DNA of 64,000 nucleotides from Bdellovibrionales bacterium (GTDB lineage: Bacteria > Bdellovibrionota > Bdellovibrionia > Bdellovibrionales > UBA1609), in contig OZ241877.1 in assembly GCA_965203095.1 (NCBI GenBank), forward strand, positions 1,440,001 through 1,504,000, in the 5' to 3' direction. Numbering within the stretch: the stretch's first letter is position 1; each line of letters begins with the position of its first letter. Shown piece by piece: positions 3,167 through 58,319 of this stretch. A model generated the notes under the pieces. It was not told the origin of the DNA. It saw only the letters and a list, made by a program, of their open reading frames with translations, and made no database searches. Both the position numbers and the translations under genes were made by a program.

Positions 3167-4180
3167 ATGAAAATCATAAGTTTTTTTATGTCATTTTTAT
3201 TTAGTGTATCTGCTTTTTCAGCAGAGAGACCCCCTTGCAATGGGCAAAAAGGGGCTGAGCACAGCAATGGTGGTGGCTTTGTAGCCAGAACGGCTAATGT
3301 GGATGAGTCGGCTTATATCGGGCCTTATGCTATGGTTTGTGATGACGCCAGAGTGGCTGATTTTGCCAGTATTGTTGACCAAGCAATGGTGGCTGGTTAT
3401 GCGAAAGTGGCAGACAGTGCAATAGTGGCTGGCACCTCGATAGTTGATGACTTCGCCATGGTTTTAGGCAATGCAATAGTTGATGATAATGCCATGGTCC
3501 TTGGCAATGCAATAGTTGATGACAATGCCATGGTTCTTGACAATGCAGTAATCACTGATGATGTCATAGTTTCTGATTTTGCAAAAGTTTATGGTTCTGC
3601 CGAAGTTGATCATTCTGCACGAGTAGCTGACTCTGCCAAAGTTTTTGGTTCTGCCAAAGTTTTTGGTTCTTCCGGAATTTTTGATTATGCCAGAGTTTAT
3701 GGCAATGCCGAAGTTTTTGATACCAGAGTGGTTGACTATGCAGAAGTTTATGGTTCTGCCAAAGTTTCTAGTTTGTTTTTCTTGGCCGAAATTTCTGACT
3801 ATGCAGAGGTTTCTGGTAATGCAAATGTCTTGGGTTCAAAAATTTCCGGTAGTGCTAAAGTTTCTGATAATGCCAAAGTTTATGGTTCTGCTTATGGTTC
3901 TGCAAAAGTTTATGGTAATGCAGAAGTTTATGGTAATGCAAGAGTTAAGGATTCTGCAAAAGTTTCTGATTTTGCAAAAGTTTATGGTTCTGCCGAAGTT
4001 ACGGGTAATGCAGAAGTTTATGGTAATGCAAGAGTTAAGGATTCTGCAAAAGTTAAGGACTATGCAGAAGTTTCTTACCGTGCCGGAGTTTCTGGTAATG
4101 CAAAAGTTTCTGGTTCTGCAAGAGTCACTGGCCATGCCAGAGTTTCTGGTAATGTAAGTTCTGGAACAATTAATAAATAG
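3167..4180 (+). CDS. Secreted hexapeptide-repeat (left-handed beta-helix-like) protein
   Basis: SD AAAGGAGG, signal peptide ending SAFS-A, HSNGGGFVA motif, then dozens of A-x-V-x-[GD]-x hexads with exact DNA duplications (3914-3964 = 4004-4054). Confidence 0.85.
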   Translation: MKIISFFMSFLFSVSAFSAERPPCNGQKGAEHSNGGGFVARTANVDESAYIGPYAMVCDDARVADFASIVDQAMVAGYAKVADSAIVAGTSIVDDFAMVLGNAIVDDNAMVLGNAIVDDNAMVLDNAVITDDVIVSDFAKVYGSAEVDHSARVADSAKVFGSAKVFGSSGIFDYARVYGNAEVFDTRVVDYAEVYGSAKVSSLFFLAEISDYAEVSGNANVLGSKISGSAKVSDNAKVYGSAYGSAKVYGNAEVYGNARVKDSAKVSDFAKVYGSAEVTGNAEVYGNARVKDSAKVKDYAEVSYRAGVSGNAKVSGSARVTGHARVSGNVSSGTINK

Positions 4181-10599: not shown

Positions 10600-11109
10600 C
10601 TAACGGTTGATCCGGCGGGAACGGGATTGAATAGCACGAAGGCTTTTCTTTCTTTTATTTCGTTTTTTAAGCCTTAACCGGCGAATTTTTTGAAATTCTT
10701 TACTGGCTCTGTATTTTTCTCTCTCTTCTTTTGTGGGCTTAGGGACAAATTGATAATCTACAAATTCAATCAAAGCCTTTTGAGCTTGATCTCCTTTGCG
10801 ATAACCCAGTTTAACAATACGAGTGTATCCCCCAGGGCGATCCTTAAACCGCAAAGCCAAATCATTTATTATTTTGGCTACTGTTTTTTTGTCAGGGTAT
10901 TTTGCCAAAAGGGTCCGGCGAGCAGAGAGAGATCCTTTTCGCCCTAAAGTGACTGCTTTTTCCACCATCGGACGAAGGTTTTTGGCCTTAGGCAAAGTGG
11001 TTTTAATTCGTTCTTTTTCCACTAAAGAGCGAACTAAACCTCGAAAAAGGGCCTGGCGAGGGCCTGATTTTAAACCAAAAGAGCTGGTGTGTATTTTGCG
11101 GTGTCTCAT
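10600..11109 (-). CDS. rplQ: 50S ribosomal protein L17 with ~50-aa basic C-terminal extension
   Basis: MRHR..., IKTTLPKAK, RPGGYTRI, R.GD.A; follows rpoA. Confidence 0.97.
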   Translation of the reverse strand: MRHRKIHTSSFGLKSGPRQALFRGLVRSLVEKERIKTTLPKAKNLRPMVEKAVTLGRKGSLSARRTLLAKYPDKKTVAKIINDLALRFKDRPGGYTRIVKLGYRKGDQAQKALIEFVDYQFVPKPTKEEREKYRASKEFQKIRRLRLKKRNKRKKSLRAIQSRSRRINR

Positions 11110-11127
11110 TATTCCTAAGAGGAAAAA

Positions 11128-12672
11128 TCAATTTTCCGAATCCTTTTTGGAGTCATCATTTGAATCTTTTGGAGAATCATCTCCTGAATCTTTTGGAGAA
11201 TCATCTCCTGAATCTTTTTGGGAGTCATCTCCTGAATCTTTTTGGGAGTCATCTCCTGAATCTTTTGGAGAATCATCTCCTGAATCTTTTGGAGAATCAT
11301 CTCCTGAATCTTTTGGAGAATCATCTCCTGAATCTTTTGGAGAATCATCTGAATCCCTTGAAGGATCTTCTGCCGAAGATTCCTTCACATCATCACGAGG
11401 GGCCTCTTGATTTTCCTTTTGAGCCTTTTCTTCTTCAGGCGAAGTGGTGGATGGTGAAGACGACTCTTCATTCAAAATTGAGGATTTTGGATCAAAAGAG
11501 GCCGTCACCTCATCAGGAAAGTGTTTAACAGAAGTGTCCTCAGAGTCATCAAAATCGTTATCAGACTCACTTGCAGGGGCAGGTGGTTTATCAGAGGCTT
11601 TAACATCTTCTCTACGAGGGCTTTTTCCCTCTCCCTCTATTGAAGACTGAAACTCTTTTCTATAAAGGTCTTTAGGTGGCCAGCCCTCTACTTCCATACC
11701 CAAACTCAAACCCATAGTTTTTAAAATCCCTTTAATTTCATTTAGCGATTTTTTACCAAAGTTTTTTGTCCGCAACATTTCTTGCTCTGTTTTTGTGACC
11801 AGATCTCCTATATAGCGGATCCTTGCATTTTTTAAACAGTTGGCACTACGGACAGAAAGCTCTAAATCATCTGCTGGACGGAAAAGATTTTCATCAAAAA
11901 TCTCGCTTTCTTCATCTTGATCATCTTTTACAGGCTCAATATTTTCATCAAAATTCATGAAAACTTCCAACTGTTCTTTTAAAATTTTATAACCTAAAGG
12001 AACAGCCTCCTCAGGTTTTAAAGAAGCATCTGTCCAAACTTCTAAAACTAAAGAATCATAATCTGTCCTCTGGCCAATACTGGCACTGTTGACCGTATAA
12101 TTTACACGGCGAATAGGACTATGGACAGAATCTATAGGAATAAAACCTGCGGGGAGATTTTTTGCCCTCTGCTCGGCCTCCACATAACCTCTGTCAAAAG
12201 AGACTATCATTTCTGCCTCTAACTGGGCTTCATGGTTTAAAGTGGCGATATGGGCTGAAGGGTTTAAAATCTCAATCCCATCGGGGAGTTGAATGTCACT
12301 GGCTCTCACTTCACCAGGACCTTTTTTTAAAATACTAAGATTTTTATTGTTTTCATCACTTTGGCGGAAACATACAGCCTTTAGATTTAAGATAATATCT
12401 GTCACATCCTCTAAAACACCCTCAATACTTGTGAACTCATGAAGCACACCTTTAAAACGAATAGCACTGATAGCAGAGCCCATCATAGAGCTTAAAAGGA
12501 CTCTTCTGATAGAATTCCCCAAAGTGAGGCCAAAGCCCCTTTCTAAAGGACGAACATAAAATTTACCGTAAGTGCTGGTTAAAGAATCTTTATCCACCTC
12601 AAAGCCTTTCGGGCGAATGAGATCTTTCCAGTATTTATAATAATGTTTTGGTAATTCTATTTTGTTTTCCAT
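11128..12672 (-). CDS. rpoA: RNA polymerase alpha subunit with long acidic repeat tail
   Basis: [49 protein letters not shown]; alpha-CTD ends at WPP and is followed by ~180 extra aa. Confidence 0.97.
11137..11355 (-). repeat. 24-nt coding tandem repeat (DSGDDS[P/Q]K) in the rpoA tail
   Basis: Seven near-exact units plus degenerate flanking units. Confidence 0.95.
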
Positions 12673-12703
12673 ATTGATTTTCCCTTTTTATGAGTAGTTT
12701 GAG

Positions 12704-13102
12704 TTAAACCCGCCTTTTCTTTGGAGGACGACAACCATTATGGGGCAAAGGGGTAATGTCTTTAAGTAAAGTCACCTTTAAACCGACATGGGAGATGGCC
12801 CGAACAGCTATTTCCCGACCGGCCCCCGGCCCTTTGATAAAAACCTCTACATTTTTCACCCCCTGCTCTTTAGCTTTTTTAGCGGCATCCTCTGCAACCG
12901 ATTGTGCCACAAAGGGAGTTCCCTTCCGGCTCCCTTTAAACCCCAATAAACCAGAAGAGGACCAACAAAGAGTATTCCCCGCCGGATCCGTAAAAGACAC
13001 CATAGTGTTCCCAAAGCCGGAGTTAATGTAACAGTGCCCAGAGGGAACATTTTTTTTTGCTTTTTTTTTGAGTTTTTTTTTCTTTTTCTTTTCTTCAGCC
13101 AT
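12704..13102 (-). CDS. rpsK: 30S ribosomal protein S11 (poly-Lys N-terminus)
   Basis: [31 protein letters not shown]. Confidence 0.98.
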
Positions 13103-22986: not shown

Positions 22987-24285
22987 TTAATTCTCCTTTT
23001 GAATTGAAGTGGCCGGCATTTTTTTGAGAGAAACTAAAGTGTTTCTCGCCCCCGGCACAGGCCCTTTGACAAAAATAATGCCCTCTTCAGGTAGGACATC
23101 CACAATAGGAACTTTTAAACGGCTATTTCTTTTAAAACCGTATTGGCCCGGCATCCGGCGGCCCGGAAAAACACGGGAAGGCTCTGTGTGTTGGCCAATA
23201 GCACCAGTGCGTCTGTGGCTTTTAGAGCCATGGGAGGCTTTTCCGCCGGCAAAATTCCATCGTTTCATCACACCGGAGAAGCCACGACCTTTTGAAAAAG
23301 AGGATATTTTGACCTGATCCCCTTTTTTTAAGCTGTTAATGGAAAGCTCCTGACCCAGCTTGATCCCTTCAGGAATTTTTTGACGAATCTCTCTTAAAAA
23401 ACTCATAGAACCTTCCTTTAAATCAGCAGGCTTTAAATGCCCTTTTAAGGCTTTGGATCCTTTTTTTCGAGGTTTAAAAGCCACTTGAATAGCAGAATAG
23501 GATTCCTTTTTGTCTGGATTTTTAATTTGAGAGACAATGGCTGGTTCGTATTTGAGAGCCGTCACCGGGAGACTCTTCCCCGACTCATCATAAAAAGTGG
23601 CCATGGACATTTTGAAAGCAAAAAGCCCCTCTAAAAGGACCGGCTCTCTTTTTGGGAGTGTTTTATCCGTGGCTTTTTTTGACTTCACTGGGGATGGGCT
23701 GGAAAGTTTTTTGTCCGGTTTTTCCTTTTTTATATCTGGTGGGACTGTTTTTTCCTTCAAAGCTTTTTCCCCTTCTTTAGGAGGCGAAGTAGTGGCTATT
23801 TTTGAGGAAGGCTCAGGTTTTTTATCAGGAGTTTTAGGAGTAGTTGTTTTTGAGGAAGGCTCAGTTTTTTTATCAGGGGTTTTAGGAGTAGTTGTTTTTG
23901 TTGAGGAAGACTCAGTTTTTTTATCAGGAGTTTTAGCACTGCTTGTTTTTGAGGAAGGTTCAGCTTTTTTATCAGGAGTTTTGGTGGTAGTTGTTTTTGG
24001 GGAAGGCTCAGCTTTTTTATCAGGAGTTTTGGTGGTAGTTGTTTTTGGGGAAGGCTCAGCTTTTTTATCAGGGACTGTCTCTTTTTTTGTGTCTTGTGCT
24101 AAAGTTTTTTTGTCCGGTGCTGGCTTTTTTTTAGAAAAAGCTTTCTTAACCGACCGAGCACCAAATAAAGACTTTATTTTAGAAAAAGCTTTTTTTCCCG
24201 ACGGGCCAGAAGAAGGCTTCTGCTCTTTTGTGGATTGGCTTTTTTGATCTTTAAGAGATTTTTTTTGTTTTTTATCTTCAGCCAT
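22987..24285 (-). CDS. rplC: 50S ribosomal protein L3 with ~215-aa Lys/Pro/Thr-rich N-terminal extension
   Basis: Core GLFAFKMSM...PVT...[15 protein letters not shown]...SHGS...MPG...[10 protein letters not shown] 24285 (MAEDKK) follows rpsJ with an AGGA upstream. Confidence 0.92.
23790..24072 (-). repeat. ~48-nt coding tandem repeat (PDKK[A/T/P]E[P/S]S[P/S]KTTTxKT) x6 in the rplC extension
   Basis: Six units visible in DNA and protein. Confidence 0.93.
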
Positions 24286-24304
24286 TTTATCATTTCCTGA
24301 AAGC

Positions 24305-24643
24305 TCAAGCTTTTTCCTCTTCTTTGTGTTGTGTAGCGATAGAGACATCCACTCCAGCAGGAAGATCTAACTTCATCAGTTGGGATATGGTTTGGGCACT
24401 GGGTTCAGAAATCTCTAACAACCTTTTAAAACTGCGGATCTCAAACTGTTCTCTGGATTTTTTATTGACATGAGGTGACCGTAAAACAGTGTAACGGCTG
24501 ATTTTCACCGGAAGAGGAATGGGGCCGATAATGTTAGCTCCTGTTCTTTTAGCTGTGTCCACAATGCCTCTGGCCGATTGATCCAAAAGCCTGTGGTCAT
24601 AAGCAGTTAACCGTATTCTTATCCTTTGATTTTCTGTATTCAT
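24305..24643 (-). CDS. rpsJ: 30S ribosomal protein S10
   Basis: [37 protein letters not shown]. Confidence 0.98.
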
Positions 24644-55934: not shown

Positions 55935-58319
55935 CTATAGCTTGAGATGAAGGCCCAAACCATAGCCCAAGTGACTATCATAAAGGCCCATAAGGGAAAT
56001 GTATTGGCTCAGCCGGTATTCTAAACCCAGGTGATACTCTATTTCTACCTCATCACTTTGCCCTTGTTTTAATAAATCAGCAAGCTTCCAAGCGGTATAT
56101 CCTTCCGCTAAAAAATGAAAACGAGGGAAGATCATCAGCTCATAATCTAAACCGAGGCGAATATTTGTCCCTTGGGCCAAAACATCAAAGCCATTTAAAA
56201 CATTCATCCTGTGGCCCAAGCTGAGTTCCATATCCACAAGATAAGGTAGGAAATATTTAAAGCCTATACGGGTCTCCCATCCCCAATCGCTTAAAAGATC
56301 TTTTTTGTGATTTTTTATATCCACAGCCCCATAAAGCCGGAAAAAATCACTAATGAATCTTTCATAAGAGCTTGTGACTTCAAAATTACCTTTAAAGCGA
56401 AAGTTGTAATCCAAATAAGACATCGCCCCATCAATGGCCAATCTATTTTTGAAGTTGGAAAAAACCCCCTCCAGCTCTACAATCCTGCCTAAAAGGGAAA
56501 GCTCTCCCCAAGAGAACCACTGCCTGTCCCCATTTAAAACTTTGGACAGAGGGTAATCTTTCAACCGGTTGTCCCTATAATTTCCTTGGCTGAAAATGCG
56601 GGACATTCCCGCCTTCATGTGGTAAAGGATATGGCAGTGGAAAAACCAATCCCCCGGCACATCGGCTTGAAACTCTATAACCGTTGTCTCCATAGGTGGA
56701 ACATCCACAGTGTGTTTCCAAGGGGAGTGATCTCCATTTTTATTTAAAACCCTGAAAAAATGCCCGTGCAGGTGCAAAGGATGATGCATCATGGTTTTGT
56801 TGTTGAGGATAAGCCTTGTGATCTCTTTGCTTTTGATGGGGATTTTGTCGGATTCAGAGAGGTTTTTCCCGTTAAAACTCCAAACATATCTCCACATATT
56901 CCCTGTTAGATCCAGTTTAATTTCCCGAACGGGCATTTTGTTTGAAAAGTTGGATTTTTTTACTGATTTTAAATGGCTATAAGATTTTGAAGGGGGATGA
57001 GGAGAGGCTTTATCCTTCATCAAAGAGTTTTCTTCTTTTTTTGCACTATGAGAAGATAAGTTTTGATGATGAATAGCCCTATGCCCTTTGTGGTAAGAAT
57101 CACTATGCCCTTTGTGGGAAGAATCACTATGTGCTTTGTGAGAGGAATCACCATGTGCTTTGTGAGAGGAATCACCATGTGCTTTGTGAGAGGAATCACT
57201 ATGCCCTTTGTGGGAAGAGTCGCTATGCCCTTTGTGGGAAGAGTCGCTATGCCCTTTGTGGAGCTGGCTCATCCGTTTCATTTCCTCAATATAATCTAAG
57301 GGGGGAATGTCAGGAGCTTTTAAAAGCGGACCTCTTCCTATTACAGCTACAGCTCCCCCCGATCCGTCCTGAGCTGTGGCTTTAAACTCTATGGATTTTC
57401 CCTTAGGGATATCAATGATAAAATCATAAGTCTCCGCAACAGCCTGCAAAAGTTTATTGGCCAAAACCGGCTGAACATTCACACCATCGGCAGAAATTAA
57501 AAGAGGTTTCGCCCCCCCAAAAGAGAGCCAAAAATAAGTGGAGGCTGAAGCATTGATAAGCCTGAGTCGGACTTTTTTTCCTGAAGAGATATTTTCATAA
57601 TTTTGTATGGGCTTTCCGTTAATGAGAAAAAGCGGGTAATAGACATCCGAAATGTCAGCCCCATGCATCCTCATTTTCCAAAAATCAAGTTGTGCCCTAA
57701 AAGCCCCCTTCATCAAAACATCAAGAAGACTGGGCAAAGCCTTTTTTTTAATCGCCGGCCACTCATCCCCTCTTTTTAAAGAGCGAAGGATCTCTTTTGG
57801 ATTTTTATCTGTCCAGTCAGATAACAGCAAAACCAACTCTTGTGGCTGAGTTTTTCTCTCAGTAGGAGTGTCGCCTTTTCGTTCCTTAATGATAAAAGCT
57901 CCAAAAAGCCCCCTTTGCTCTTGAAGCCCTGTATGAGAATGATACCAATAAGTCCCTGGAGCCTGCTTTATTATAAATTCAAACTTATGAGTTTGGCCAG
58001 GGCGAATGGGTGGGCTGGTTAAATAGGGAACGCCATCTTCAAAATTGGGCAAAAGGATACCGTGCCAGTGGATGGAGGTCTCCACATCCATTTTGTTTTG
58101 AACATGAATAATCGCTTTTTCTCCCTGATAGAAGTAAAGTGTTGGGGCGGGAATAGAGTTATTGATGGCCATGGCCTTTTGTGGTTGGCCTGTGAAATGG
58201 ACTGTTTTATAATCCACAGTCAGATGATAGGATCTTTTAAGAGTGGCCTTTCCCGCCAAGGGCTTATCAGCACTTGTTAAAAAACAGGAGAAGGAAATAA
58301 AAAAGGTCAAAATCAGCAT
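55935..58319 (-). CDS. CopA/PcoA-like multicopper oxidase with His-rich linker and C-terminal barrel-like domain
   Basis: HWHG, YWYHSH, HPLHLHGH, HCHILYHM; C-terminus with alternating aromatic beta-strand pattern. Confidence 0.92.
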   Translation of the reverse strand: MLILTFFISFSCFLTSADKPLAGKATLKRSYHLTVDYKTVHFTGQPQKAMAINNSIPAPTLYFYQGEKAIIHVQNKMDVETSIHWHGILLPNFEDGVPYLTSPPIRPGQTHKFEFIIKQAPGTYWYHSHTGLQEQRGLFGAFIIKERKGDTPTERKTQPQELVLLLSDWTDKNPKEILRSLKRGDEWPAIKKKALPSLLDVLMKGAFRAQLDFWKMRMHGADISDVYYPLFLINGKPIQNYENISSGKKVRLRLINASASTYFWLSFGGAKPLLISADGVNVQPVLANKLLQAVAETYDFIIDIPKGKSIEFKATAQDGSGGAVAVIGRGPLLKAPDIPPLDYIEEMKRMSQLHKGHSDSSHKGHSDSSHKGHSDSSHKAHGDSSHKAHGDSSHKAHSDSSHKGHSDSYHKGHRAIHHQNLSSHSAKKEENSLMKDKASPHPPSKSYSHLKSVKKSNFSNKMPVREIKLDLTGNMWRYVWSFNGKNLSESDKIPIKSKEITRLILNNKTMMHHPLHLHGHFFRVLNKNGDHSPWKHTVDVPPMETTVIEFQADVPGDWFFHCHILYHMKAGMSRIFSQGNYRDNRLKDYPLSKVLNGDRQWFSWGELSLLGRIVELEGVFSNFKNRLAIDGAMSYLDYNFRFKGNFEVTSSYERFISDFFRLYGAVDIKNHKKDLLSDWGWETRIGFKYFLPYLVDMELSLGHRMNVLNGFDVLAQGTNIRLGLDYELMIFPRFHFLAEGYTAWKLADLLKQGQSDEVEIEYHLGLEYRLSQYISLMGLYDSHLGYGLGLHLKL
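57066..57260 (-). repeat. 24-nt coding repeat HK[G/A]H[S/G]DS[S/Y], seven units plus a partial
   Basis: Visible in DNA and protein. Confidence 0.93.

Follow-up and report, generated by a model that had tools for sequence, protein, structure and literature searches.

Introduction

The largest subunit of RNA polymerase II ends in a C-terminal domain (Pol II CTD) that is built on one conserved heptad and served by dedicated kinases. Terminal low-complexity regions occur on bacterial ribosomal proteins, where they are placed at the surface of abundant proteins and their function is described as unexplained (Ntountoumi et al. 2019, PMC6821194); L3, L17, and L21 are listed there, and RpoA is not mentioned in the main-text sections of that paper on ribosomal termini. 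On RNA polymerase (RNAP) itself, the delta subunit (RpoE) of Bacillus subtilis carries an acidic disordered region for which DNA displacement has been measured (PMC7749165), and region 1.1 of sigma70 has been described as a DNA mimic (PMC4598750). D/E-rich tails are also reported to autoinhibit DNA-binding domains, as in HMGB1 (PMC10250230).

Here we analyze a stretch of 64,000 nucleotides from a Bdellovibrionales bacterium (contig OZ241877.1, positions 1,440,001 to 1,504,000; the window), in which the RNAP alpha subunit, RpoA, carries a long acidic tail. The tail is a compositionally biased terminus on a conserved, abundant protein and varies among orthologs. Terminal low-complexity regions are already known, and the long RpoA tails are a variant of them on RNAP: L3, L17, and L21 are all extended here too, whereas the RpoA tails differ from the ribosomal termini of PMC6821194 in their carrier, in their S/D/E/P/T-rich composition, in reaching 471 aa, and in their link to genome reduction.

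The tail resembles delta as a disordered, net-negative region on RNAP, with a total charge per enzyme of −66 (two tails) against −47 for delta. Delta, unlike the tail, forms a subunit of its own that includes a folded domain, and it has roughly three times the charge density and measured DNA displacement; the delta N-terminal domain (PF05066) had no match in the genome of the window (G000, 90% complete), and the B. subtilis and L. lactis controls matched. Like sigma70 region 1.1, the tail would bring negative charge close to the parts of RNAP that bind DNA, and region 1.1 has lost its acidity in the tail-bearing genus; region 1.1, however, is a folded element that docks inside the main channel, and its pairing with an alpha tail fails in three genomes (G030, G043, and G054). 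As in HMGB1, an acidic disordered tail lies beside a small basic DNA-binding domain, but tails of the HMGB1 type are eukaryotic, pure D/E runs, and the RpoA tail mixes S/D/E/K/P. On our tentative reading, the alpha tail would work like the delta region or the D/E tails without belonging to either. With the Pol II CTD it shares the form of a repetitive, Ser/Pro-containing disordered tail on an RNAP subunit; unlike the Pol II CTD, it has no conserved unit or SP site and is acidic before any phosphorylation.

To our knowledge, few bacterial proteins are as constant in length as RpoA; here it has grown by 20–140%, several times over, in lineages with shrinking genomes. The listings and abstracts searched, drawn mostly from outside subscription journals, showed no paper that describes long tails on the RpoA of Bdellovibrionota. 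More than 100 natural tail variants that keep charge and not sequence offer a test of whether selection maintains low-complexity tails on housekeeping proteins or only tolerates them.

Results

Layout and Domains of the rpoA Locus

The features of the locus are as follows (window coordinates).

12704..13102, minus strand: rpsK (S11), directly upstream of rpoA
11128..12672, minus strand: rpoA, RNA polymerase alpha subunit, 514 aa (open frame of 514 codons; TIGR02027)
11959..12672, minus strand: alpha N-terminal (assembly) domain, residues 1–238 (Pfam PF01193 and PF01000; pLDDT mostly >90)
11674..11898, minus strand: alpha C-terminal domain (alpha-CTD), residues 259–333, ending GWPP (PF03118; aligns with E. 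coli alpha 249–326)
11131..11673, minus strand: acidic low-complexity tail, 181 aa, net −33 (composition; predicted disordered)
11635..11661, minus strand: short predicted helix, residues 338–346 (AlphaFold2), within the genus-conserved K-x-L-Y-x-K-E-F-Q stretch that opens the tail
11138..11350, minus strand: 24-nt tandem array DSGDDS[P/Q]K, 8.9 copies (repeat search; contig depth check)
10600..11109, minus strand: rplQ (L17), starting 18 nt past the rpoA stop, with AGGA five bases before its ATG

RpoA scores 358 bits against TIGR02027 (cut-off 228), and a core-only query finds a single copy in G000. The gene sits between rpsK and rplQ. The interval between rpsK and rpoA (12672–12704) does not hold rpsD, likewise in the flagellated relative G034, and the absence of rpsD from the alpha operon is probably ancestral in the order. 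Across 73 aligned rows the alpha-CTD columns R275, N278, C279, N304, G306, K308, and S309 are invariant, with a numbering offset of +10 relative to E. coli; R275, N278, C279, G306, K308, and S309 presumably correspond to the DNA-contacting "265 determinant" of E. coli.

The first-pass annotation had described an acidic tail of about 180 residues, about nine DSGDDS[P/Q]K units of net −2 each, and a stop 18 nt ahead of rplQ, and the locus bears it out on each point. After GWPP333, the 181 residues contain 58 D/E, 25 K/R, and 38 S, with nine SP dipeptides and 7% hydrophobic residues. The array, with 92% matches between copies, encodes seven strict units (five DSGDDSPK and two DSGDDSQK) and degenerate ends (DSDDSPK and DSNDDSKK), about nine in total, each of net −2. 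It is species-specific and nearly homogeneous, and it probably arose by recent slippage and has no function that depends on its unit. AlphaFold2, run on the 73-row alignment, models the core confidently and returns pLDDT of 36–53 with no secondary structure after residue 346, a prediction that supports the earlier description of the alpha tail as acidic, repetitive, and disordered. A comparison of the tail with solved structures gave no match, a promoter scan at the locus stayed at chance level, and the terminator-like matches inside the array lie on the opposite strand.

Assembly Support for the Tail

The RpoA tail is real at the DNA level and is not a misassembly. Single contigs in X1 and X2 cover 11321–12700 (core, tail, and into the array) and 10900–11190 without differences, and the frame is open in them; neither of the two faults that a read check was to reveal, a misassembly or a stop after WPP, was found. 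No single contig piece in X1 or X2 spans the whole array. The depth ratios of its repeat pieces in X1 are about 4.0, 1.5, and 1.0, for which the assembly predicts 4.25, 1.5, and 1.0; the first ratio is about 4.8 in X2, and X3 gives 3.4, 1.3, and 0.9. Misassembly was rejected on these grounds: the junction lies within contigs, and the depths agree with the number of copies. X1–X3 are one sample, possibly the source of the assembly.

X4 comes from another sample in the study that supplied X1–X3, and its contig is identical over 11321–11527. The loose end of that contig at 11527 was rejected as a variant: TTAA is joined there to GATC, and we take these to be enzyme sites meeting at a ligation-type junction. 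In X5, the sponge metagenome of another study, one contig of depth 2.6 represents a relative from the CTD into the tail (11465–11694), with 11 differences plus a single deletion of 3 nt; X6 covers the rpoA core only. Among the runs listed as containing this sequence, none is of RNA.

Distribution and Origins of Long Tails

The organism is a reduced-genome Bdellovibrionales without FlgH: G000 comprises 1.80 Mb at 38% G+C, and at its 90% completeness holds no match to FlgH. Bdellovibrionota of sponges that are reduced and non-motile have been described (PMC9944714). A core-only RpoA query matched 60 of 61 genomes, and the survey of RpoA lengths in relatives that had been suggested for this locus found long tails throughout one clade. 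In a quick RpoA tree of 64 rows (duplicates and rows below 54.5% identity left out), this clade of 25 rows (SH-aLRT 98) carries tails of 66–471 aa in every row, 23 of them net negative; core identity within it falls to 66–84%, yet no row has lost the tail. Five further rows have tails of 62–219 aa, and 25 other Bdellovibrionales rows have tails of 7–50 aa, typically PGWDPN.... The gap between rpoA and rplQ is 2–96 nt in the 15 clade rows where it was located; because it stays short, the tails grew inside the gene.

Long tails coincide with loss of FlgH, which is absent from all 17 long-tailed genomes and present in 22 of 28 short-tailed ones (45 genomes, many incomplete); none of the 22 flagellated genomes has a long tail. 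Independent pairs comparing FlgH loss with tail were alike in three cases, opposite in none, and without difference in three (p 0.25). Long tails require four changes on a tree of 19 joined proteins from 28 genomes, which suggests that they arose in at least four lineages. On RpoA alone, a single origin of the clade plus G043 and G054 was not rejected (p-AU 0.148); on the 19 joined proteins, with LG+G4 quick trees, a single origin of all 10 long-tailed rows was rejected (p-AU 1e-81), as was a group of the clade plus G043 and G054 (p-AU 0.0006). Two simple causes were rejected as well: loss of mismatch repair as judged by MutL, which is found in 44 of 45 genomes, and low G+C, since core GC3 is 0.16–0.60 in long-tailed and 0.21–0.51 in short-tailed genomes.

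A wider search with the core query, which sees only proteins sharing words with it, found 190 proteins of at least 456 aa. Among the 120 of these that were listed, 59 are at least 62% identical to the query; of the remaining 61, the 29 without a ribosomal-protein fusion include none with an acidic low-complexity tail and consist of wrong starts, read-throughs, and extra domains of ordinary composition.

Properties Kept across RpoA Tails

As judged from sequence comparison, length, disorder, and negative charge are kept across the tails, and sequence, repeat unit, and Ser-Pro are not. A query combining the CTD end with the tail found 572 matches; 120 of them were listed, and among the 118 that were parsed, 100 carry a tail of 51–363 aa. 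Among these 100 listed long tails, 91 are of net charge −5 or lower, eight are near neutral, and one is basic; the last 15 residues are acidic in 91, and Cys occurs in none. In the core-only set, which overlaps with this one, 54 of the 59 listed long homologs are of net −5 or lower. The tails of the clade are 7–20% hydrophobic, a much smaller share than in the proteome of G000, and 0–6% aromatic. The 3876 codons of the clade tails contain no stops, where base composition predicts about 196. Estimates of dN/dS rest on one well-alignable pair, the closest (L057/L059), with a tail dN of 0.19 and dS of 0.69 and a core dN of 0.017 and dS of 0.49; nine other long-tailed pairs give tail dN of 0.53–0.95 from doubtful alignments. 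The clear exception in charge is the RpoA tail of G009, with 471 aa and net +56. This tail (L010; G009:C1:1077814 onward) is a Lys/Pro/Ala repeat of charge opposite to its relatives, in a composition that we take to be histone-H1-like.

Repeats and Ser-Pro sites are more variable. Tandem repeats occur in 21 of the 100 listed long tails, with unrelated units of 5–35 aa, and the unit of this species is common to no other species among them. SP is absent from 39 and occurs at most twice in 76, and 16 of the 59 members of the core-only set lack it; over the 100 tails SP occurs 178 times against 131 expected from composition, and PS 171 times. Because neither SP nor the repeat unit is conserved, there is no ground for a code of the Pol II CTD type. 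The analogy to the Pol II CTD and the phosphorylation at SP sites that the first-pass annotation had raised thus find no support, while its suggestion that the tail mimics nucleic acid stays plausible.

Lengthened Termini on Other Proteins

We compared 26 genes of the S10-spc-alpha operons over 41 stretches, some of them partial. Regular extensions are confined to the C terminus of RpoA and the N terminus of L3, in the same reduced genomes, and those of L17, L22, S17, and S5 are sporadic; a general lengthening of termini was rejected, with 24 of 26 operon genes lacking a regular extension. The L3 extension in the window is as follows.

23629..24348, minus strand: L3 N-terminal basic extension, about 215–240 aa, with a 48-nt (16-aa) repeat (gene 22987–24348)

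L3 gains 24–215 aa (upper bounds) in 10 of the 11 long-tailed genomes with data and at most 14 in 17 flagellated genomes, with shorter extensions in most relatives without FlgH. Its extensions carry −7 to +33 in the genomes that have long RpoA tails, so the charge is protein-specific. NusA tails measure 40–215 aa in 12 clade genomes vs. 10–75 in 18 others, and RpoD frames are about 600 aa in long-tailed and flagellated groups alike. That the RpoA tail is clade-wide and repeatedly evolved, and that L3 and NusA are lengthened too, is visible only by comparison.

In G000, long charged C-terminal tails were observed on NusA (584 aa; G000:C1:618441–620195) and on L21 (251 aa; G000:C1:1580695–1581450). 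The L21 tail was rejected as part of the RpoA-tail trait, being long in flagellated relatives and throughout the order. In G026, the repeat within NusA looks as though its reading frame had shifted.

Charge of the RNAP Core and sigma70 Region 1.1

Region 1.1 of sigma70 is normally strongly acidic. We took its charge as that of the RpoD stretch before region 1.2, as located by the motif of the latter. This stretch carries −4 to +10 in nine genomes of the genus. The range is −10 to −27 for 20 flagellated genomes, −2 to −12 for seven other long-tailed genomes, and +1 to −22 for six short-tailed genomes without FlgH (G030, +1); the loss of acidity in the genus is unusual in itself. Neutral-to-basic regions 1.1 were observed at G000:C1:1396969–1397679 (minus strand) and upstream (L253) and at L210–L251, and PF03979 (sigma70 region 1.1) had no match in G000.

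Core charge, the sum of two alpha cores, beta, and beta', was calculated for 26 of 30 genomes, those in which both beta and beta' are complete. Its mean is −62 in nine flagellated, −29 in 13 long-tailed, and −53 in four short-tailed genomes without FlgH; with tails counted, the respective values are −64, −64, and −55. Within the 13 long-tailed genomes, tail charge and core deficit are uncorrelated (rho 0.12, p 0.7). G043 and G054 have long acidic tails and no core deficit, and G030 has a core deficit and a neutral region 1.1, yet a tail of 7 aa. A basic shift is also seen in Adk and L4 and may be proteome-wide.

Candidate Functions and Origins of the Tail

Our preferred reading, which we hold tentatively, is that the RpoA tail is a sequence-unspecific, tethered polyanion that damps non-specific DNA binding. 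Internal duplication would have turned a short ancestral tail into a long, acidic region predicted to be disordered; translated into protein, it would touch the basic alpha-CTD or the polymerase surface, and its tethered negative charge would lower non-specific DNA binding by both alpha-CTD and polymerase. Selection would keep charge and not sequence, and the enzyme so shielded is one that has lost acidity in its core and in sigma70 region 1.1. Consistent with such a role are the retention of tails in 25 of 25 clade rows, the negative charge of 54 of 59 listed core-query homologs, and the tail dN of 0.19 vs. dS of 0.69 in L057/L059, together with acidic ends in 91 of 100 listed tails, the lack of Cys in all of them, and the scarcity of hydrophobic residues. 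The long-tailed core is less acidic (−29 vs. −62) and equal once tails are counted (−64 vs. −64), region 1.1 is less acidic in the genus than in flagellated genomes, and precedents exist in delta, D/E tails, and region 1.1 (PMC7749165, PMC10250230, and PMC4598750). Against it, tail charge does not follow the core deficit (rho 0.12, n=13), G043, G054, G030, and G009 are counter-cases, Adk and L4 share the basic shift, and charge density is about one-third of that of delta (−0.18 vs. −0.57 per residue); kin are also not independent, with FlgH–tail pairs at 3/0/3 (p 0.25), and the dN/dS estimate comes from one alignable pair only. A broader scenario, in which host-bound Bdellovibrionales repeatedly rebuilt anti-stickiness through alpha tails that replaced lost core and region 1.1 acidity as a delta-like DNA mimic, encoded in charge and regenerated by new repeats, is unlikely. 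Nearly as likely as the tethered polyanion is tolerated growth of a useless tail: slippage duplications (on slippage, PMC10120016) would accumulate at tolerant termini (RpoA C, L3 N, and NusA C) in small host-bound populations, and selection would remove only harmful versions, whether hydrophobic, frame-breaking, or strongly DNA-sticky. Such growth under weak selection could be the origin of the tail even if function came later. It accords with the repeated lengthening of only RpoA and L3 among the 26 operon genes, in the same reduced genomes, with the longer NusA tails of the clade, with unrelated units in the 21 repetitive tails, with a seven-fold range of tail lengths that includes one basic tail, and with a tail dN about 10 times that of the core. 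The open frame itself could be kept without tail function: were translation to end early, hundreds of bases ahead of rplQ would go untranslated. Tolerated growth sits less well with the loss of no tail in 25 clade rows despite 66–84% core identity and shrinking genomes, and with acidity that is consistent on RpoA and not on L3; nor does repair loss explain slippage, as 44 of 45 genomes retain MutL.

Other readings carry far less weight. Charged disordered tags increase solubility (PMC11066018 and PMC6389997), and the tail might prevent aggregation of an abundant, mutation-loaded subunit, with L3 and NusA tagged likewise; extension of several abundant proteins with either sign of charge and the near absence of hydrophobic residues from tails fit this, but only two of 26 operon proteins are regularly extended and the acidity of 54 of 59 listed RpoA tails is left unexplained, which makes it improbable. 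A role of the tail in forming RNAP condensates or in scaffolding partner molecules is very unlikely: each enzyme would carry two long, predicted-disordered regions next to a longer NusA tail, but the tails are uniformly acidic and 0–6% aromatic. An acidic, aromatic-poor composition generally disfavors self-association. Scarcely credible, finally, are two further proposals. One is a Pol II CTD analogue whose phosphorylated Ser-Pro repeats recruit factors cyclically; the nine SP sites in the tail here, the excess of SP (178 vs. 131) over the 100 listed tails, two Hanks-type kinases in G000, and a PP2C-like gene within the window (named from sequence) speak for it, but SP is absent from 39 of those tails, PS is about as frequent (171), species share no unit, two of the seven strict units here carry Q for P, both kinases look membrane-anchored, and nothing links either to RNAP. 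The other is that the tail is clipped from or not read into the working protein, or that the assembly gives the array a wrong length; the array is not covered end to end by any one contig, but frames are open in all relatives, composition bias is seen at the protein level, and depth ratios match.

Other Observations in These Genomes

Additional alpha-CTD-like frames were observed in several genomes. In G007, a 77%-identical alpha-CTD (L041; G007:C1:686573–686809) ends a 495-aa frame with a signal-peptide-like start; L316 (G001:C60) and L317 (G026:C1:1279906–1280646) are frames of 410–468 aa with tandem CTD-like repeats, and weaker extra alpha-CTD matches occur in G005, G009, and G011.

G000 contains 177 tandem arrays genome-wide. 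Three Lys/Ser-rich, partly repetitive ORFs on its minus strand (G000:C1:301383–302249, 946874–947509, and 1674328–1674747), with no NCBIfam match, are possibly nucleoid proteins. Short secreted-looking ORFs made of 5-, 6-, or 7-residue repeats (pentapeptide, hexapeptide, and coiled-coil) occur at 3440–4149 of the window and genome-wide. A second 24-nt repeat, the His-rich GHSDSSHK in 7.6 copies, lies at 57079–57261 on the plus strand of the window, within a multicopper-oxidase-like ORF (55935–58319; named from sequence).
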